64,000 nucleotides of DNA. Source: Ignavibacteriota bacterium. GTDB lineage: Bacteria > Bacteroidota > Ignavibacteria > UBA10030. The DNA is taken from contig OY969585.1 of assembly GCA_963701295.1 (NCBI GenBank), forward strand, positions 1,056,001 through 1,120,000. Direction: 5' to 3'. Shown piece by piece: positions 30,522-40,359 of the stretch. Position 1 is the stretch's first letter. Each line of letters starts with the position of its first letter. The notes beneath the pieces were generated by a model. It was not told where the DNA came from. It did not search any database and saw only the letters and a program-made list of their open reading frames with translations. The translations under genes were made by a program, and so were the position numbers.

Positions 30522-31787
30522 TTATAGCGGGACGGCTTCGCTAAGAATTTCAGCTAACGTTTCAGCAATTTCTTTTCTGTTGAAACGGCGTACAACACTC
30601 ATAGTGGTTTGAAAATTGTGCGCACGGTCGAAGAATTCCCGGGCATTTGAGGTATATGGAAAAATCATTCCTGCATTTGTTTCATCAAGAATTTGTCGGA
30701 TTTCTTCATTGTCATCTCCGAACGCAAGGATAGGTTTGCCGGAACGAAGATATTCGAAGAGTTTTCCGGGTACGTGGCGTTTCTCCGTTGCGCATACCAT
30801 AACGTACGATGAAGCGCCTAATTCTTCAATCATTTTATGATACGGGAGAAATCCCTTAAATTCGGCCCGGTCACTGAGTCCTGCTTCCGTGAGCGAATGC
30901 CGAATACCAGAACTGACCGTTCCGATAAAAACAATCTTGATATTCCTTCCATTGTGTATTTCCTTTTGAAGAGTTGCCCAGAGTGCTTTTGGATTTTGAT
31001 AATCAAAAATATTTCCTGCATGCAAAAGAATTTCTGTTGCTGACACGCTCTTTGGAATATAATCATGAAACGACTCTTCGTTATATCCCCAATACAGAAC
31101 ATGTGATGTATTTCGGATAGCAGGATATCGCCGTGCATAATCTTCTCTCATGCTTTCCGTAACAAACACTCTGTGTGAAGCTTCTTCTAGGACAGACCGT
31201 TCTAGGTGACGATCAAGCGCAAGTGTAAGTACGCTTCGCTTGAAGTCACGATAATACGCGATATCAACCCACGGATCGATGAAAACGGGAATATGCGGAA
31301 TGCCAAATTTCTTGCTTAACTTTTTCCCAACCAACAATGTCGTATGCGGCGGGCCAATGGAAACAATTGCTTGAATGTTTTCGGAACGAAGAATTTGTTT
31401 TCCTTTGTGAACGGCATTCCAGTACCAGCCAATGCGTGCATCCGGGATAAAGAGATTCATCCGTATCCAGATTGCAAGCCGATGACGTAATCCGCGATTG
31501 GTCGTTGATATTGTTTCCGACGCTGTTAACGGTGTGTTCTTTTCTTTTCCTAATAAGCGGCGGTAGAGGCCGAACGGTTCAAGTGCCCGTGCTTTAAAAA
31601 CTTTCAGATCAGGATCAACTTCCTTGAGCAAGGATTCATCTTGAGAAGAAAATATATCTTCGTCAGCAGTGAGAACAAGCGGCTGCCATCCAAATTCTGG
31701 CAAATGTTGGATCATTTTCAGCGGCCAGTGTACAGTCGCTTTGCCAGACGGAGGCCAAAAATATGTAATGAAGAGAACTTTTTGCAT
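30522..31787 (-). CDS. GT4-family glycosyltransferase
   Basis: ITYFWPP, IPDARIGW, DPW, PGKLFEYL. Confidence 0.85.
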   Translation of the reverse strand: MQKVLFITYFWPPSGKATVHWPLKMIQHLPEFGWQPLVLTADEDIFSSQDESLLKEVDPDLKVFKARALEPFGLYRRLLGKEKNTPLTASETISTTNRGLRHRLAIWIRMNLFIPDARIGWYWNAVHKGKQILRSENIQAIVSIGPPHTTLLVGKKLSKKFGIPHIPVFIDPWVDIAYYRDFKRSVLTLALDRHLERSVLEEASHRVFVTESMREDYARRYPAIRNTSHVLYWGYNEESFHDYIPKSVSATEILLHAGNIFDYQNPKALWATLQKEIHNGRNIKIVFIGTVSSGIRHSLTEAGLSDRAEFKGFLPYHKMIEELGASSYVMVCATEKRHVPGKLFEYLRSGKPILAFGDDNEEIRQILDETNAGMIFPYTSNAREFFDRAHNFQTTMSVVRRFNRKEIAETLAEILSEAVPL

Positions 31788-31848
31788 ACGCTAATGCAAC
31801 AATGTACTTTGAATCTCGAGGAATGACAACAAGTTTTCGCGTGAATTT

Positions 31849-32613
31849 CTATTCACAGATTGAACCGAGTTCGAGGAGAAGGGGCACATTTTTCTGTCTA
31901 AGCTGTGCTATCGGCATTTCATCGAAGGTTCTTCCGGAGAGTTCACGGCCGGCTGCTTTTTTGCGGACACCGCCCCACTGCTTGAAAAAGAATGGGATAT
32001 TCATTTCACGGCAGCGGCGTTTAATCTGTGTTATCCAATCACGCTCCATCGGACGCGCACCCGGGCCTGATTCGCCGCCGACGATAACCCAATCGATTCC
32101 TCTCAGCGGAAGTTTTGAGATAGGACCAAGCAATGGCTCTAAGGAAAGAAATCGAACAGCAGCAGGTACTTTGACCAGTTCATGGATCCGGTCTGTATAT
32201 TTTTGAGATTCGACACTCACGCCCATCCAGACATTTTCAGGCCATGGAAGAAAAGGTGCTATGTGCACTAACCGATCCGATCTTTTTGTAAGTATCTGGA
32301 ATGTGTGCCAATATGCGCGCCTCATGGTATCAAAGACTTTTACGATAAAATCGCAAGGAACATCTTTATGCAATAAATCGCTCATGGAATTGACAAAAAT
32401 GACGCGCGGTTGTTTCCATTCGAGCGGCAATTCGACGATGTCTTCCTGAAGAGTTACCTTAAATCCATTTCGATAGCGCTGTGATCCCATTGCTTGAAGT
32501 CGCATAGCCATACGCTCGGCATAGCAGTTCTTGCAGCCCGGACTGATTTTGCTGCAGCCAGTTACCGGGTTCCAGGTGGATTCTGTCCATTCGATACTAG
32601 AATTTTGCGACAT
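31849..32613 (-). CDS. DUF5131 (phage Gp37/Gp68-like, radical-SAM-like three-Cys) protein
   Basis: [67 protein letters not shown]. Confidence 0.93.
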
Positions 32614-32618
32614 ATCTT

Positions 32619-33818
32619 TTATCGTTTTACGAGTTTAACAAATTTTTCATCGGAAATTCGAACAGAACCATTTTCAGTAATAAGATCACCTGTTTCAAGC
32701 AACTTTTTAATAGCTTCATTGTACTCACTTTTTGTAAACCGAGCAAATTGAGACTCAATAAATCGCTTTCGAAGTTCTGGCCTCTTCATCTGAATACTAT
32801 AAGGATTATCTTCAGACTTGCATCGCTCATTTGCTATTCGAAATGCCTCTTGCAACATAAGTTGAGGTAAAGCCTCAATATCAGGTTGCATGCCACTATA
32901 AAGAAATTCAGATGGTTCATTGTTCTCAAACAATGTGTCTACATTCTTGCATCTGATTTCTTCAAGCATTAATTCTCTCTTTGCTTTAATCATGACATCG
33001 TTCATTATTTCTATTGCAATTTGACTTTGAGAAGCAAAAATCAGAAAATATTTTACTTCTTCCCCCTTTAACCCAGTAGTCACAGGAAGAACACCTAACC
33101 ATTGAAAGATTTCTCGAAAAGATTCCAGATATTTTGATTGAATAATTTGTGGTTTATCATCGTCTGGAATTGATTCTGAATTCATAATATCTAACCACCA
33201 ATTTCCACCTAATGAATCTGTTACAATAGATGTAATTGTTTCAGCCTGTTTACGTAATGTGTCATTTTTAGAATGTAAGTTTTTACAAATTCCTGTAAGT
33301 CTTGGTATAGCTCGGTGGTTAAAATTGATCAGAAGTTCTGTACTTCCTTTCTTTGCCCGTTGAAACACTTGTAATAGCAGCCTCATCGATAATCCTTTTA
33401 TTCCAAAAGGATCTAAGAACATAAATAGAGGTATTTGCTGAGGCAAATTTTTTAATAGAAACAGTCCAACATCTGCAGCTTCACCCGGTATAACATTGAC
33501 TATTCCTTGATCAATAAATTCATGAAGATTGTTCTTCAATTGTTCTCGATCTTCATCATTAATCTCCGCTAAAACAACACGATTATTAAAGCCTAGCTTC
33601 TGTCGATAAATACGTGCAAGATTGGCGATGATCATTGGAGAACCATCGGAACCATCGTCGAACTTCCCCTTGCCGGCAAATAAGTCAGCAACTATTGCTG
33701 GAGATCTATATTTTTGATTAACTTTTGGAAAATATTCTAAGAGGTAGTTTTTAAGAATCTTGTACTTTATGAGAGACCAAGAACGCGGCCGTTCAAAAAA
33801 AGAGTCTGATGTAATCAT
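32619..33818 (-). CDS. tcmP: Three-Cys-motif partner protein (TcmP; SAM-MTase fold, possible C-terminal wHTH)
   Basis: WS..K..IL..Y, DLFAGKG...GSP, FLDPFG, TELLINF, Y.LIFAS; 5 nt from DUF5131; visibly AT-rich. Confidence 0.82.
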
Positions 33819-33889
33819 ATTGGCGTAATAAATATTACAACTAATTTAATTCATTCTCTATTCATATCCGATCTTTCTATGTTCTCACA

Positions 33890-33925
33890 TACATTTTTAA
33901 CCATCATTATCACACGCCACATGAA
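33890..33925 (-). pseudogene. Diverged relic of the 3' end of the S24 repressor gene
   Basis: Encodes FMWRVIMMVKNV versus repressor end FMWRVIKVIKSV (34408-34373); 27/36 nt identical. Confidence 0.7.
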
Positions 33926-33941
33926 GCTTCTATAATGTCCA

Positions 33942-34373
33942 TCATCCTGGTCGTTTCTTCTTCCCGCAATCAATACAATATCCTTTATGAACACAAATTG
34001 TACCTCCACATTGAGAGCAAGTCCATTTTACATCTTCATTCTTTAAAAATTTTCTAATACCGAGATTTTTAATATTTTCAAGATTTTCAATCATGCTCAT
34101 ATCGTATTTGGTTCGGTATCTTGTATCCAGATGCTTCAAATTGTCGCAGGGGAAATTACTGCATTCAAAACAAAATTTTGCTCTTCCGGTTCGAAAATTT
34201 GTGCAGTTCTTGATTTTACATCGAACACGGGTAACCGGTTTATTCGCGTTCGCTCCTCTGCAGCCGGGACATTTATTTTTCTCTCTCAGATAAGCCATGC
34301 AAATGCCGCAGTTCATTCCGCAAGGAGCTATAAGAGAAAACTTATTCAAGGATTCCATTTTCTCCTTTTTCAC
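33942..34373 (-). CDS. DUF3795 Cys-rich (Fe-S/Zn) protein
   Basis: APCG.NC..C, CPGC, C.IKNC, C.EC..FPC, CSQCG...C..CG; GTGA overlap with the repressor stop. Confidence 0.8.
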   Translation of the reverse strand: MKKEKMESLNKFSLIAPCGMNCGICMAYLREKNKCPGCRGANANKPVTRVRCKIKNCTNFRTGRAKFCFECSNFPCDNLKHLDTRYRTKYDMSMIENLENIKNLGIRKFLKNEDVKWTCSQCGGTICVHKGYCIDCGKKKRPG

Positions 34374-35020
34374 ACACTCTTAATCACTTTTATAACGCGC
34401 CACATGAAAGTCACATCTTTCTTGTGTACCGCCATTGGTTCGTATTCGGGATTGAGTGGAATCAAGTGTACAAATTGTTCGTCAATTTTTATCCGTTTTA
34501 CAGTATCCTCTTCATCCACGCGCACCACGCAGATGTCGCCGCTTCGCACTTCTAATTTTGGCGTTACCACAATGATGTCGCCGTTCTCGATGCGGGGCGC
34601 CATGCTGTTTCCCTTTACTTCGAGTGCGAACGCATTTGGGTCGCGCACATTGTCCACCGTGATGTATCGCTCTGCCTGATCGGAATGAAACCGCTGGCTC
34701 AATGCACCGGCCGGCACCGATGCAAGCAAGGGAAGCGAAACGAGTTCTACTTTTTTATAACGGTTTGTTGGCAATGGTATGACCTTGGATTTGTGCTGTT
34801 CAGCAGGAACCATCTCTCCTTCACCGCTCAGCAGCCAATGAGCCGCGACTCCGGTCGCTTTGGCAATGCGCATGAGATAATTACTGTCGGGCACCTGATC
34901 GCCTTTTTCCCATCGCTGAACAGTGCGTGTAGCAATATCGATCTTTGCGGCAAGATCAGCCTGGTCAAATTGTTTTAACAACCGCGCTTCGCGGATACGT
35001 TGTGCAATTGTAGGTTTCAT
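34370..35020 (-). CDS. XRE-HTH plus S24 peptidase self-cleaving repressor (LexA/CI-like)
   Basis: RIREAR...DQADLA..I.IATRTVQRWEKG..VP HTH; Ala-Gly cleavage site VPAG; catalytic Ser GNSM and Lys TVKR; GGAGA SD 6 nt before ATG 35020. Confidence 0.92.
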   Translation of the reverse strand: MKPTIAQRIREARLLKQFDQADLAAKIDIATRTVQRWEKGDQVPDSNYLMRIAKATGVAAHWLLSGEGEMVPAEQHKSKVIPLPTNRYKKVELVSLPLLASVPAGALSQRFHSDQAERYITVDNVRDPNAFALEVKGNSMAPRIENGDIIVVTPKLEVRSGDICVVRVDEEDTVKRIKIDEQFVHLIPLNPEYEPMAVHKKDVTFMWRVIKVIKSV

Positions 35021-35033
35021 AAGCATTCTCCAA

Positions 35034-35049
35034 ACGACATAAATGTCAT
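35034..35049. promoter_or_regulatory. Putative repressor operator 1 (ACGACA-TAAA-TGTCAT)
   Basis: Near-perfect 6-4-6 palindrome over the predicted transcription start of the repressor gene. Confidence 0.75.
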
Positions 35050-35053
35050 AACC

Positions 35054-35083
35054 AAAATAATGCTTTTTATCCCATATTGTCAA
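35054..35083 (-). promoter_or_regulatory. Sigma70-type promoter for the repressor operon
   Basis: TTGACA (35083-35078), 18 nt spacer, TATTTT (35059-35054). Confidence 0.55.
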
Positions 35084-35134
35084 TAGCTTTATAATAGAGC
35101 AGAAAACAACAGCGGGCTGTGCTGGAATCACTTC

Positions 35135-35163
35135 TTGACAAGACGACAAAAATGTCGTATTGT
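35135..35163 (+). promoter_or_regulatory. Sigma70-type promoter of the iRadA-PolB operon with operator 2 in its spacer
   Basis: TTGACA (35135-35140), 17 nt spacer, TATTGT (35158-35163); perfect palindrome ACGACA-AAAA-TGTCGT at 35143-35158. Confidence 0.8.
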
Positions 35164-35174
35164 CTTATAAATAC

Positions 35175-35966
35175 ATGAGCAAGATAATCAACATAATACC
35201 CGCTGCGCGCCAACGCCGGTACCCCGCTCCGCCGCCAACCGTGGACCTGCATGATAGTGCGATTCCCATTCGCTCTGAACGGATGATTCATGCCTTTGCA
35301 AACAAACCGGGCAAGGTATTTCTGTTGTACGGCGAGCGGGCTATTTTTCAGTTGTCGCTTCAGATGGCCGCGCATACGATGGTTCAGGGAAATCCTATTG
35401 CCGTTGTAGACGGCTGCAACCGTTTCGATGTGCACGCGCTTTCACGATTTGCCCGCGTGCGGAAAATCGATCCGAACAAATTTCTCAATCATATTTTTAT
35501 CTCGCGCGGCTTCACGTGTTATCAAATGGAACAGGCAATTGCGCACAAACTGCCGGCGTTTCTTGCAACCATCCATTCGAACACTGCACTGGTTTTTGGA
35601 CTGCTTGATACCTTCTACGACGAACAAGCATCTCTGCGTGAGGTGCAGCAGATTCTTCAGAGACTGCTCGGCTCGTTTCAAGAAATGAAATCGAAAGGAG
35701 TCTCGCTCTTGCTGGTGTGTTTAGAAAGGACCGTCGCGCCGCAGGAACGCAATCAGTTGTTTACGACATTAAAGAATGGCGTCGACCGTGTGTACAAACT
35801 CGATATCAATGAACGCGGTACACTTCAGCTCTATTTAGAATCTCAACAGCCTGTGCACGAACAAATAAAAGGAGCATTGAATTATGGGACGAACCGTACC
35901 CACCTTCACCAACCTGATCGATGCGGAACTGGCAAGCTGGTCAAAATTCCGCCGCGGACTGCGTAA
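35175..35966 (+). CDS. Inactivated RecA/RadA-superfamily protein (ImuA-analogous iRadA)
   Basis: Walker A degenerate (LYGERAIF, no GKT); VVDGCNRFD, IFISRGFTCYQM, LLDTFYDE segments typical of RadA-like folds. Confidence 0.75.
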   Translation: MSKIINIIPAARQRRYPAPPPTVDLHDSAIPIRSERMIHAFANKPGKVFLLYGERAIFQLSLQMAAHTMVQGNPIAVVDGCNRFDVHALSRFARVRKIDPNKFLNHIFISRGFTCYQMEQAIAHKLPAFLATIHSNTALVFGLLDTFYDEQASLREVQQILQRLLGSFQEMKSKGVSLLLVCLERTVAPQERNQLFTTLKNGVDRVYKLDINERGTLQLYLESQQPVHEQIKGALNYGTNRTHLHQPDRCGTGKLVKIPPRTA

Positions 35967-36138
35967 AGACGATCAGGAAGTTTTCGACGAAATTTTCCGC
36001 GCCGCAAAACTGCACCTGGCAGAAAATTTTTATGCGATGCGGGCTGTTCCGTTCGAAAGCATGATGATGTCGATTGTCGTGGAACAGCAGAAAGCGATTC
36101 GAAGATTGGAAGAAGAAGGAAAGAAAATAAGAAGTTGA
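35884..36138 (+). CDS. Small helical PolB2-associated protein (arCOG07300-like)
   Basis: MGRTVPTF...W.KFRRGLRK.DQ..FD.IF..A..H...PFE.MMMSI; AAAGGAG SD upstream; lies between iRadA and PolB. Confidence 0.75.
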   Translation: MGRTVPTFTNLIDAELASWSKFRRGLRKDDQEVFDEIFRAAKLHLAENFYAMRAVPFESMMMSIVVEQQKAIRRLEEEGKKIRS

Positions 36139-36250
36139 GTAGATGAGTCTATGAGCAATTTAGCCAATGAGCCGTTGAGCCTATAAGTAGTTGAGCATGA
36201 AAAAAATCAGTTTTCAATCTGAAATCTCCAATCTAAAATCTCCAATCTCT
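36135..36250 (+). repeat. Eight degenerate octamers (WTGAGY..) followed by five AATCT.. heptamers
   Basis: 36135-36198 TTGAGTAG ATGAGTCT ATGAGCAA TTTAGCCA ATGAGCCG TTGAGCCT ATAAGTAG TTGAGCAT; 36216-36250 AATCTGA AATCTCC AATCTAA AATCTCC AATCTCT. Confidence 0.75.
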
Positions 36251-38530
36251 GCCTGGCTGTTCGATGTGTATCCGTCTGAACGCGGCGTCACACTCTGGTT
36301 TATCGGCCGGAACGGTGTACGGCTGCGCTGTTTCCGCACTTTTACGCCGTCATTCTTTCTTCATTTGAATAATTCCGACGCCAAACGTGCGGCGGTTCTT
36401 GCCGACCGGTGCCCTGTTCCGATTTCGCTTTCTCCTACGATGCGCACGGAAATTTACTCCGGCGATTCCATCAATGTGCTGCAAGTCTTTGTTCATGATC
36501 CGATGCGGTTCAAGGAAGTTGTATGGTACTTCGAGAAATTTTTTCCACATTTTGCATTTTTCAATTCTGATGTTTCCGTAGAACAGCAATTTCTGTATGA
36601 AACGCAGTTGTTTCCGCTGGCACTTGGCGAGTATGAGGTCGGTAAGGAAGGTGAACTTCTCTCCTGGCATCTCAATGACAACCGTGAAGCGCCGGAATAT
36701 GAACTGCCGCCGTTTTCCATTATGCAGCTTCGCAACAGCAATGATTTCGTGCCGCCGAAGTACCAGAAGTTTCTGCAGTTAGAGATCAGTTACGAAAACC
36801 GTACGTATGCTTTAGAACAGGATTCACCGCGCGAACTGCTCGAAGCGTTCAACTGGCATCTTCATCATTATGATCCCGACTTGCTTGTTACCGATTACGG
36901 CGATGCGGTTCTTCTTCCGAAGATCCTACAGCTTTCCAAACAGTTCAACATTCCTTTGCTTCTCAATCGAGACGCCGAGGCACAGCACCGCACGACGAAG
37001 GAATCAAGTTTCTTTCAGTACGGAAAAATTGTCCACAAAGATGGTGCATTCACGCTCGCGGGGCGCTGGCATGTCGATGCGAACAATTCTTTTACCGTGA
37101 GCGAAGCTGATCTCGACGGATTATTTGAGATGACGCGTCTGACACAAATGTGCGGACAGCGGCAAGGACGCGCGAGCATCGGCACGTCAATGTCATCGAT
37201 GCAGCTTTCGTGGGCGTACCGCAATAATGTGCTTATTCCGTCGAAGAAACGTGAACCGGAGGAGTTCAAGTCAGCCGCAACACTGCTGCTTGCCGACCGC
37301 GGCGGACTTATTTTTAATCCTCCGCTTGGGTACCACGAAGATGTTGCGGAACTCGATTTCGTCTCGATGTACCCAAGCATTATGGTGAACAACAATGTCT
37401 CGCCGGAGACGGTGAACTGCCGATGCTGCCATAATGAAACAGTGCCAGAACTTGGATATACGATCTGCGAGAAGCGTAAAGGTGTGGTTCCGGAAACACT
37501 TCGCGCTGTTGTCGCCAAACGTGCGTATTACAAACGGATGAAAAAAAAATTCAAGGGAAAAGATGAAGTGCTTTTTAAGCGGTACGATTGCCGGCAAAGT
37601 GCGCTCAAGTGGATGCTGGTAAGCTGCTTCGGCTATCTTGGCTACAAGAACGCCCGCTTCGGACGCATCGAGGCACACGAATCGGTCAATGCCTTTTCGC
37701 GGGATGCCATTCTCACTGCAAAAGAAATTGCCGAGAGCCGCGGCTACAAGCTTCTCCATGCTATTATCGATTGTGTGTGGCTGAAAAAGCCCGGCGCGAC
37801 ACAGGACGATTACGAAGAACTTGCACATGAAATTTCCACACGTGTCGGTATCGATATTTCGCTGGAAGGCATGTACAACTGGATTCTTTTTCCCTCATCC
37901 AAAACAGATCCGCAGATTACTACCGCAAATCACTATGTGGGATGGTACCGGCATGGTGACATCAAAATGCGCGGTATCGAGGCGCGGCGGCGCGATACGC
38001 CGAAATTTATTAAAAACATGCAGAAAGCAATGCTGGATAAAATGTCCGCCGCAAAGAATGTCGAGGAAGTATCGACACTCGTGCCGGAAGTATTGGAGAT
38101 CGCACGGGGCTTCATGGTACTCCTCCAAAGTGGACGTGCAAACCCGATGGAGCTTGTTCTCAAGCGCCACATCACGCGCGAGGCCGATGAATATCTTAAT
38201 AACAGCATCAATGCGGTTGTTTCCAAGATGGTAGAAGAAATGGGAGTACACCTCTCGGCAGGCGAGTCGATCGAGTTCATTATTCTCGATCAATCTGGCA
38301 AGAAAAAGCCCGAAAGAGCTAAACCTCTTGCTCTCTATGCTTTCGAGGACGGCTACGATATTGAGCAGTATACCGAGCTTGCTTTACGGGCTGTGGAAAC
38401 GCTTCTCCTTCCCTTTGGCTACGATGTACAACAGTTGAAAACGCATTTTAGAATCGGTATGCCAAAACAAAAGCGTCTGCAGGTACCCCAAAAAAGTCAG
38501 GAACTTCCATTGTTCCAAATCCAGATCTAA
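36197..38530 (+). CDS. Family B DNA polymerase, PolB2/Dpo2-like, exonuclease-degenerate
   Basis: Motif A DFVSMYPS; motif B RQSALKWMLVSCFGY; motif C HAIIDC instead of YGDTDS; CRCC..C insert; KMRGIE.RRRD; no recognisable ExoI DxE; C-terminal QELPLF. Confidence 0.9.
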   Translation: MKKISFQSEISNLKSPISAWLFDVYPSERGVTLWFIGRNGVRLRCFRTFTPSFFLHLNNSDAKRAAVLADRCPVPISLSPTMRTEIYSGDSINVLQVFVHDPMRFKEVVWYFEKFFPHFAFFNSDVSVEQQFLYETQLFPLALGEYEVGKEGELLSWHLNDNREAPEYELPPFSIMQLRNSNDFVPPKYQKFLQLEISYENRTYALEQDSPRELLEAFNWHLHHYDPDLLVTDYGDAVLLPKILQLSKQFNIPLLLNRDAEAQHRTTKESSFFQYGKIVHKDGAFTLAGRWHVDANNSFTVSEADLDGLFEMTRLTQMCGQRQGRASIGTSMSSMQLSWAYRNNVLIPSKKREPEEFKSAATLLLADRGGLIFNPPLGYHEDVAELDFVSMYPSIMVNNNVSPETVNCRCCHNETVPELGYTICEKRKGVVPETLRAVVAKRAYYKRMKKKFKGKDEVLFKRYDCRQSALKWMLVSCFGYLGYKNARFGRIEAHESVNAFSRDAILTAKEIAESRGYKLLHAIIDCVWLKKPGATQDDYEELAHEISTRVGIDISLEGMYNWILFPSSKTDPQITTANHYVGWYRHGDIKMRGIEARRRDTPKFIKNMQKAMLDKMSAAKNVEEVSTLVPEVLEIARGFMVLLQSGRANPMELVLKRHITREADEYLNNSINAVVSKMVEEMGVHLSAGESIEFIILDQSGKKKPERAKPLALYAFEDGYDIEQYTELALRAVETLLLPFGYDVQQLKTHFRIGMPKQKRLQVPQKSQELPLFQIQI

Positions 38531-38689
38531 TTTCGAGAAGACAATCTATTTCTCTGAGATGATTATACAAAACAAGATTTGAATTTCAGGTGATCTCAGA
38601 TTATCTTCCAGAACAACAAATTATGCAACTTTAACACTTCACATGCCGTCATGTTGCATAATGCTATTTCAAGAACACAAGGTGAATCC

Positions 38690-40359
38690 ATGAAGAACGC
38701 AATGATATTTCTTTTCGCAATAATGCTGTTCGTACCGTTTCTTTTCACAGACGCTCAATCGAACCGAGAGAACCTCAACAATGATAATGTAGGTGAACGT
38801 CTTGGAAACGAAATTGAACAACTTGTTGACAAAATAACACAACGGTGGAGCATCCAAAATGACTTCGAGCAGGATGTGAAAAAGGACACTCTTCCGCCAC
38901 AATCCCGAAGATCACCCGATATTATCGACAGTGAAACTGACGGAAATGCACAAACATTTTCCGGCGATAAAATCGTTCAAGAGTCAGATACGATTAACGG
39001 CAATATCATTGTCAAAGGCGGAAATCTGACAGTCTATGGCGTAGTCAATGGCGACGTGCTGGTGGTCGGCGGTGATTTGCGTTTAAAACGCACCGGCAAG
39101 ATCACCGGTAATCCACGTGTTGTTGATGGAAGCATTCTGAAAGACGAAGGCTCGGTTATCGAAGGATCTGAAGAGAAAACAAGTTATCGTGAAACGCGCA
39201 AAAAGTTTTCACAATCAAGCCGAACATTTGATGTCTTATGGCGAACTGAGCAGACGAACTGGGATAATTATATTTTCCGATATAACCGCGTGGAAAGTAT
39301 TTTTCTCGGCCTCGGGACGGAAAAAAAATATTATTGGGATGGTGAAAAAGTTTGGAATGCATACGGTTCCATCGGTTGGGGATTTAAATCGCATACGTGG
39401 CGTAGCAATTTGGGATTAGTGCGGCAGTTTGCCCTTGTTTCCGATGAAGGATCTGGAATTATTGAACTTGGAGCAGAAGGATATACTCTCACCGATACGA
39501 AAGACCAATGGATTATTTCGCAAAACGAAAACACAGCATCAGCCTTACTGATTCATGAAGATTTTCGTAATTACTTTGAGCGCAAGGGTCTCACAATCCA
39601 TACAGCGTACTATTTGAAACATGACTATTGGAAGGGTGAATTGACACTGGCATATCTGGCGGATTCTTACGATTCTCTAACAAACAAAGTCGATTGGGCG
39701 TTATTTGGCGGTAGTAAAAAGTTTCGTGCAAATCCTGCCATTGACCCGGGCAAGATGCGCAGTGTGATGCTGAGTGGTGGCATCAGGTACCTGTGACCAA
39801 GACAAGCCGAGCACAAGAAGGATGGTGTTTGTTTGGTTCCGCCGAGTTTGCTAAAAAAAACTGGGGAAGCGAATTTGAATTCTATCAATATATGTTCGAT
39901 TTACGACGTTTCCAACCGTTGGGACGATATGAGAATTTTAACGTGCGTGTACGCGTAGGTACTGCAACCGGTGCGCTCCCGCTGCAGAAAGAGTACGAGT
40001 TAGGCGGATTGGGAACGATGAATGCATTTCCTTTCAAGTCGGACATTGGCAACCGGATGATGCTTGTGAATATGGAATTCATTTTGAACGGCAATGTTCT
40101 GGACGATTTGAATTTTTGGCCGACATGGCTTTTTCAATATGTGAATATCATCCTTACCTCGGATGCCGGATTCACACGTTCTGTTCCTCCGTGTGATGGC
40201 GCGGCCCAGGCATTCGGCGGAATGAAGTTGAATGAATTTCAGCACGACTTTGGCGTGGCATTAGGAAACCGGGCCGGCACCTACAGGATTGGATTTGCAT
40301 GGCGAACAGACCGGCCAGCCCCGGTACAGTTTCTTCTCAGGTTTAGCAGGCCATTCTAA
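38690..40359 (+). pseudogene. Outer-membrane protein (bactofilin-like repeats plus BamA/TamA-like barrel) split by a frameshift near 39785-39793 (possibly a sequencing error)
   Basis: Signal peptide, G.V.GDV.V.GG repeats, RYNRVE; second half DLRRFQP, LGGLGT, C-terminal F; removing 2 nt joins the ORFs as GISTVTKTS. Confidence 0.7.

Follow-up and report, generated by a model that had tools for sequence, protein, structure and literature searches.

The operators of phages 434 and P22 are palindromes with an A/T-rich 4-bp centre. In bacteria, the rebuilding of SOS networks from phage repressors is the model proposed for FddR of Francisella and for the Bacteroidetes (PMC13148647, PMC8565304). FddR is described as a co-opted lambdoid-type repressor acting, in a compact damage module, on its own gene and a divergent gene that is sometimes dinB (PMC13148647), and the non-canonical LexA of Bacteroidetes as an autoregulated protein with HTH_3 (PF01381) and S24 domains and a palindromic dyad-spacer box (Sanchez-Osuna et al. 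2021, PMC8565304). The bacterial PolB2 mutasome has the gene order iRadA-PPB2-polB2, with lexA, SRAP and DUF72 enriched near polB2 (Timinskas et al. 2025, PMC11791011). Here, a 64,000-nt stretch of the genome of an Ignavibacteriota bacterium (the window) is described, in which a PolB2 operon and a CI-like repressor gene diverge from two copies of one palindrome, very probably the operator pair of this repressor, as judged from comparative sequence analysis.

The PolB2 operon

The plus strand of the window encodes an iRadA-like protein (35175..35966), an inactive RadA/Rad51 homologue whose start codon is uncertain, followed by PPB2 (35884..36138; 84 aa) and the B-family DNA polymerase PolB2 (36191..38530; 779 aa), in the order described in PMC11791011. 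PPB2 starts with the MGRT motif reported in that paper. PolB2 has the motif DFVSMYPS and carries IIDC in place of DxD, the loss of the first Asp being typical of PolB2 according to the same source. The iRadA-like protein had no Pfam match; its Atlas clusters were found at 0.95-0.96, with Rad51 on 14-17% of their members. Its first ATG (35175) lies only about 5 nt past the predicted transcription start, at the same distance as in close relatives (window 35163-35177), so that the message may be nearly leaderless or be translated from a codon further in. Elsewhere in the window genome (G000:C1:789148-789352) there is a short piece of polB2 that shares 61-69% identity with residues 664-732.

The CI-like repressor

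The divergent gene (34370..35020, minus strand) encodes a repressor of 216 aa with HTH_3 (recognition helix ATRTVQRWE) and Peptidase_S24 domains. It was the sole S24 gene found in the genome, a single contig (99% complete) in which recA is present and the LexA DNA-binding domain (PF01726) was not found. The protein scores 67.1 against TIGR00498 (cut-off 110.95), below the threshold for canonical LexA, and has HTH_3 in place of the winged-helix PF01726. Its N-terminal domain matches the 434 repressor by sequence (E 5e-5), and the best PHROG is phrog_4. In the AlphaFold model (pLDDT 79), with five N-terminal helices, lambda repressor is the top fold match, and the small domain resembles P22 c2 (TM 0.91 by target). 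In the C-terminal domain, alignment to E. coli LexA places A104-G105, S139 and K175 at the cleavage and catalytic positions, that is, the scissile X-Gly bond and Ser-Lys dyad of self-cleaving S24 repressors; the fold of this domain matches those of lambda CI and LexA, RecA-bound structures among them (TM 0.79-0.80 by target).

The repressor gene is chromosomal, mostly single-copy and conserved across one order. The 61 repressor proteins compared fall into 22 groups at 80% identity. Residues Q20, R32, T33, Q35, R36, W37 and E38 are invariant in all 61, as expected for one shared operator, and so are G105, S139 and K175. Residue 104 is Gly in 46 of the proteins and Ala in 15, including the window repressor (codons 104-105, 34706-34711). 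A Gly-Gly LexA has been discussed as probably non-cleavable, although that protein had also lost the catalytic Ser (PMC3091678). The prevalence of Gly-Gly in the family, together with a recA gene that is not under the box, would suit a repressor that uses the palindromes as operators and responds to some signal other than RecA-dependent self-cleavage, or represses almost constitutively. Such a switch is nevertheless unlikely, given the invariant G105, S139 and K175, the Ala-Gly bond in the window, the C-terminal fold shared with RecA-bound repressors, targets that are damage-tolerance genes, and sister cassettes run by canonical LexA.

A prophage immunity region was considered and rejected: the closest annotated phage proteins are only 30-33% identical, the divergent gene is iRadA, and no phage genes were seen at the locus. 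No full-length relative was found in IMG/VR, and among 1.84 billion representatives searched, the nearest full-length protein beyond the family shares 41% identity.

Predicted operators and promoters in the window

The perfect palindrome O1, ACGACAAAAATGTCGT (ACGACA-AAAA-TGTCGT), is located at 35143-35158, and the second copy O2, ACGACATAAATGTCAT (ACGACA-TAAA-TGTCAT), at 35034-35049, with one mismatch in the 12 arm positions and a start-to-start distance of 109 bp. A predicted sigma-70 promoter for the PolB2 operon (35135..35163, plus strand) consists of TTGACA (35135-35140), 17 nt and TATTGT (35158-35163). The earlier note had O1 filling this spacer, which is nearly exact: it occupies 15 of the 17 bases and the first T of the -10 box. 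The promoter predicted for the repressor (35054..35083, minus strand) has TTGACA (35083-35078), 18 nt and TATTTT (35059-35054), a geometry that places the start near 35047 and, as the same note had proposed, inside O2. Both geometries are repeated in relatives.

Promoter-like matches were more frequent than in shuffled sequence (5 observed versus 0.8). Motif matches with at most 2 mismatches in the window numbered 5 versus 2.4 expected, a count reached in 9 of 100 shuffles, and the rate of perfect 6-4-6 palindromes of whatever sequence in the window genome is about 0.06 per 155 nt. These window-only motif statistics are within chance, and the significance of the motif therefore rests on the relatives. 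No Rfam family was found in 31000-39000.

Conservation of the motif and its promoter position

Sixty orthologous loci with repressor identities of 55-94% were compared, a site being any match with two mismatches or fewer, or one whose GACA-N4-TGTC core is exact. The earlier note had proposed motif conservation upstream of orthologous cassettes as a check, and a site is present upstream in 59 of the 60 loci, the exception (L049) being truncated by the contig end. In an unbiased count of spaced palindromes, GACA-N4-TGTC was present within 250 nt upstream for 48 of the 60 repressor genes and in none of the 60 downstream control stretches, where the best palindrome of any kind reached 5/60. Alternative spacers of 0-9 between GACA and TGTC gave no upstream occurrences, except N7 (3). 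The consensus is RYGACA-WWWW-TGTCRY, with a centre that is 96% A/T across the orthologues.

Near the closest orthologues (L001-L004, L013) the motif seemed to be missing, a reading that was rejected, as genes are inserted there and the sites lie further upstream; sites remain at the promoters where 0.4-2.7 kb of genes precede the repressor. Insertions, DUF559 endonuclease genes among them, are frequent in the stretch that separates the promoter from the repressor or iRadA, with the operators kept (L001-L004, L084, L088, L091, L134). Matches at +439 and +481 inside repressor genes were discarded as G-D-I-I-V codons.

With a weight matrix trained on L001-L060, 137 non-redundant sites of at least 18 bits outside the matched genes were available for promoter geometry. 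As O1 does, 56 of them start exactly 8 nt past the start of TTGACA with a -10 box behind, and 60 further promoter matches lie at -29 to -44, some sites being counted in both groups. In the second geometry, the site coincides with or follows the start belonging to the promoter of the repressor itself; the offset of O2, -34 from TTGACA, recurs at 17 sites in relatives. All these counts overstate independence because the genomes are kin. Paired sites are separated by 30-33 bp (35 cases) or by 96-98 or 107-109 bp (15 cases), spacings that fit cooperative binding or looping and are offered as a lead, the long ones coming from few lineages.

The palindrome could also be a REP-like hairpin repeat or, GACA being similar to TTGACA, arise where two -35 boxes stand back to back. 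The identical 16-mer does occur within GCC-ACGACATTTATGTCGT-GG repeats of repressor-negative genomes (L167, L168, L177, L178, L074), in two of them (L177, L178) right behind an IS200/RAYT-like transposase gene; the arms in the window extend to 12 bp, and some secondary sites begin with TTGACA. On the other hand, O1 is the sole perfect copy in the 3.64-Mb single-contig genome, and the outer arm positions vary independently on the two arms, so that pairing is not kept. True TTGACA boxes are separate from the palindrome, at fixed offsets and in one-directional promoters too, and LexA-headed promoters have TTGACA or TTGACT without such a palindrome. Both origins are very improbable beside the operator reading, although the GCC-ACGACATTTATGTCGT-GG repeat does confound motif scans.

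Probable exchange with canonical LexA

The repressor was found in 23 of 251 genomes of the class, all within the window's order. The strict pattern had 48 occurrences in the 22 repressor-positive relatives (20 of them with a match; reversed control, 0) and 106 in the 228 repressor-negative genomes, that is, 2.2 versus 0.46 per genome. This background of about 0.46 matches comes from coding sequence and the transposase-linked hairpin repeat, and makes single distant matches unreliable. Of the matches listed for repressor-negative genomes, the 20 best-looking, picked by hand, were rejected as evidence of the motif beyond the order: none is by a repressor or PolB2 gene, and most are in coding sequence or the hairpin repeat.

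PolB2 is more widely distributed than the repressor (53 of 251 genomes). Upstream DNA was covered for 40 of the 53; the remaining 13 are the window genome, ten relatives with sites seen in other loci, G050 and G159. Among the 12 repressor-positive genomes, 11 stretches contained iRadA, and nine of these PolB2 operons are headed by a site. Among the 28 repressor-negative genomes (one stretch being too short), 16 cassettes are headed by a LexA-like gene; none of the 16 has the motif in the promoter, where TTGACA or TTGACT is present, and 12 carry ATAC-N4-GTAT, mostly as GGTATACATTTGTATACC. A palindrome like GGTATAC-ATTT-GTATACC lies over the -10 box of the cassette-heading lexA (L285, L286, L288-L290, L296, L299-L301, L314, L316-L318) and is a candidate LexA box, differing from the direct repeat that is the LexA box of Balneolaeota (PMC7739468).

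The DUF72-SRAP-iRadA-PPB2-polB2 cassette is thus found with canonical LexA and a GGTATAC-N4-GTATACC-like box in some genomes and with the repressor and RYGACA-W4-TGTCRY in others: the order in G183 is repressor-DUF72-SRAP-iRadA-PPB2-polB2, and G028 and G264 have the identical order behind lexA. In the PolB2 tree, which has no tested root, these two LexA-headed cassettes are placed among repressor-controlled rows, which implies that the regulator pairing changed more than once. The correspondence has exceptions. In G271 and G031 the motif precedes iRadA and the repressor was not found even by profile, with G024 similar, and in G217 and G081 the repressor is present and iRadA lacks a site. One relative (G011) has, besides a CI-like repressor, a second cassette, SRAP-lexA-iRadA-polB (L127), with canonical LexA, without the GACA motif and with a polymerase 41% identical to the window PolB2; G007, G015 and G019 also carry a separate canonical lexA. 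Since elsewhere in the class this cassette is under canonical LexA and another palindrome, the repressor has probably taken the place of LexA as a non-orthologous replacement.

Size of the predicted regulon

In the window genome, only the two window sites scored high in promoters, in both the matrix scan and the promoter-plus-operator scan, and genome-wide counts above 12-16 bits equal those of permuted-matrix controls. A 19-bit intergenic match at genome position 3436885 was set aside as having no promoter match or clear downstream gene, and a 20.5-bit match at 3183594 as lying inside a gene. The earlier note had suggested that the box may define a non-canonical SOS regulon and proposed a scan for GACA-N4-TGTC-type sites at recA, uvrA and similar genes. 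No site was found at recA, the two uvrA genes, uvrB, dinB or DUF72 of the window genome, the best upstream score being at most 0.4 bits versus 23-24 bits at the locus, and a promoter-position site within 1.5 kb was found at none of 30 recA loci, two of which have isolated matches of 15-16.5 bits. With no further promoter site in the window genome, the suggestion was overstated. A full SOS regulon (recA, uvrA, uvrB and others) with sites too degenerate for the matrix is very improbable on these numbers, with the caveat that recA ends an operon in the window genome and that coverage in the relatives was the 1.5 kb upstream; in its favour are the repressor's standing as the only S24 protein and a 21-bit site at the start of uvrA in a single relative (G036, L107).

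Other sites in the relatives precede damage-related genes, namely DUF72, DinB, PA0069/Rv2578c-type radical-SAM, SRAP-containing and DUF5131/TcmP units. For about 18 of the 137 sites no target was recognised, and background probably accounts for several of them. A strong operator pair away from the repressor (L116:2449 and 2480, G002) is next to a gene resembling IS1-family transposases; its two sites are 31 bp apart, and one of them occupies a TTGACA spacer. Operators just behind TTGACA at L085:1501 and L112:2466 precede unannotated genes of about 320 aa and 206 aa, respectively, which are possible further members of the regulon.

On the repressor side of the window, a DUF3795 gene (33942..34373, minus strand) abuts the repressor stop codon, is present in 10 of 60 orthologous loci and is likely co-transcribed with the repressor. 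Further downstream on the same strand (31849..33818) are tcmP (32619-33818) and DUF5131 (31849-32613; in 13 of 60 loci), whose membership in the repressor transcript is uncertain. In other genomes (L046:999, L050:265, L120:671), the operator heads a DUF5131-repressor-iRadA unit or precedes a tcmP-like gene; in L046 only 20 nt separate it from DUF5131, and in L120 the tcmP-like gene follows it directly. This hints that the tcmP/DUF5131 pair is damage-regulated.

By comparative genomics, one box is thus predicted to give both autoregulation and control of error-prone polymerases (repressor, iRadA-PPB2-polB2, dinB), as expected of an SOS master repressor, without the control of recA and excision repair. 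The predicted regulon is this one locus in the window genome and, across the order, a compact damage-tolerance regulon, not a full SOS network.

Proposed mechanism and significance

From the sites, their geometry and conservation, their co-occurrence with the repressor and its intact cleavage residues, we infer that the adjacent CI-type repressor probably binds both palindromes, keeps its own gene and the translesion operon iRadA-PPB2-PolB2 repressed, and is lost through RecA-stimulated self-cleavage once DNA is damaged. A dimer of the HTH domains would read the half-sites RYGACA across the 4-bp A/T centre. At O1 the repressor would block RNA polymerase between the -35 and -10 boxes, and at O2 it would cover its own start site, limiting its own synthesis. 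Cleavage at A104-G105, triggered by RecA filaments when DNA is damaged, would then free both promoters. A single RNA run, with 0.05 of the words, consisted only of assembled contigs of relatives and does not bear on transcription starts or expression. From the earlier note, the part stating that the palindrome is the binding site of the repressor, with autoregulation and operon repression, is strongly supported by conservation, fixed promoter position and co-occurrence, at the level of sequence comparison; the genome-wide SOS regulon that it suggested is not supported in the window genome.

A wider reading, which we put forward tentatively and at slightly under even chances, is an independent capture of a lambdoid repressor as the damage switch of one Ignavibacteria-type order, seen in mid-exchange, with regulator and operator swapped together more than once, paired operators that are maybe cooperative at 31-32 bp or looped at about 98/109 bp, and most members cleaving at Gly-Gly.

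This kind of system is known; the clade, the box and the swap appear to be new in the literature searched. The locus offers a precise, testable operator and regulator for the damage response of a mostly uncultured group, in a genome where no LexA was found. It also gives a named switch to bacterial PolB2 mutasomes, whose control was only guessed from adjacent 'lexA' genes, and the sister genomes with canonical LexA and another box on the same cassette constitute a natural experiment on SOS networks rebuilt from phage repressors.

Comparison with known systems

No description of the RYGACA-W4-TGTCRY box or its regulator was found in the literature searched, which consisted mostly of texts outside subscription journals; the supplements of PMC11791011 and PMC8565304 may list these genes. 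The similar TGACA-N4-TGTCA has been described for unrelated two-component regulators. A term search gave no mention of Ignavibacteria or TGTC in the main text of PMC8565304, and none of LexA or Ignavibacteria in PMC12926913.

Like the Bacteroidetes non-canonical LexA (PMC8565304), the window repressor has the CI-type HTH_3 and S24 architecture, a palindromic box and predicted autoregulation, and in the place of a missing canonical LexA it would likewise control error-prone polymerases and a radical-SAM gene. The Bacteroidetes regulons, in contrast, are described as large and include recA. Hymenobacteraceae-type proteins with CTAA-N5-TTAG upstream are 23% identical to the window repressor (value for L212) and have the helix KRSLIGAYE and a C-terminal extension. 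With L184, L212 and L222 as stand-ins for the published proteins (the first two with CTAA-N5-TTAG upstream), a quick tree of 45 proteins, weak in its deep branches, set the two groups apart as clades that both have SH-aLRT 99. Neither GGA-N5-TCC nor CTAA-N5-TTAG is among the ten commonest palindromes upstream of the 60 orthologues, a count based on 4-base arms that probes GGA-N5-TCC indirectly.

FddR of Francisella, compared by description only, is alike in its origin and its compact module, in which canonical SOS genes were not induced (PMC13148647); it differs in its box, GTG-N11-CAC, and its phylum, and the target in the window is a PolB2 mutasome. The window operon agrees with the PolB2 mutasome of PMC11791011 in gene order, in the MGRT start of PPB2 and in the lost first Asp of DxD. 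In the parts of that paper covered here, no operator is given and CI-like repressors are not separated from LexA; its supplements may list such genes as 'lexA'.

Canonical LexA (TIGR00498, PF01726) shares with the window repressor an S24 domain with an Ala-Gly bond and a Ser-Lys dyad, and has the same role on the cassette in sister lineages; it differs in its winged-helix DNA-binding domain, which the window repressor lacks. The lambdoid repressors (434, P22 c2, lambda CI) differ in that even the best annotated phage proteins are 30-33% identical to it and in that the window gene is chromosomal, with no prophage genes seen at the locus. The window box has the A/T-rich 4-bp centre of the 434 and P22 operators and, because the protein is CI-like and not LexA, it is best seen as an operator of the phage-repressor type and not as a LexA box variant.
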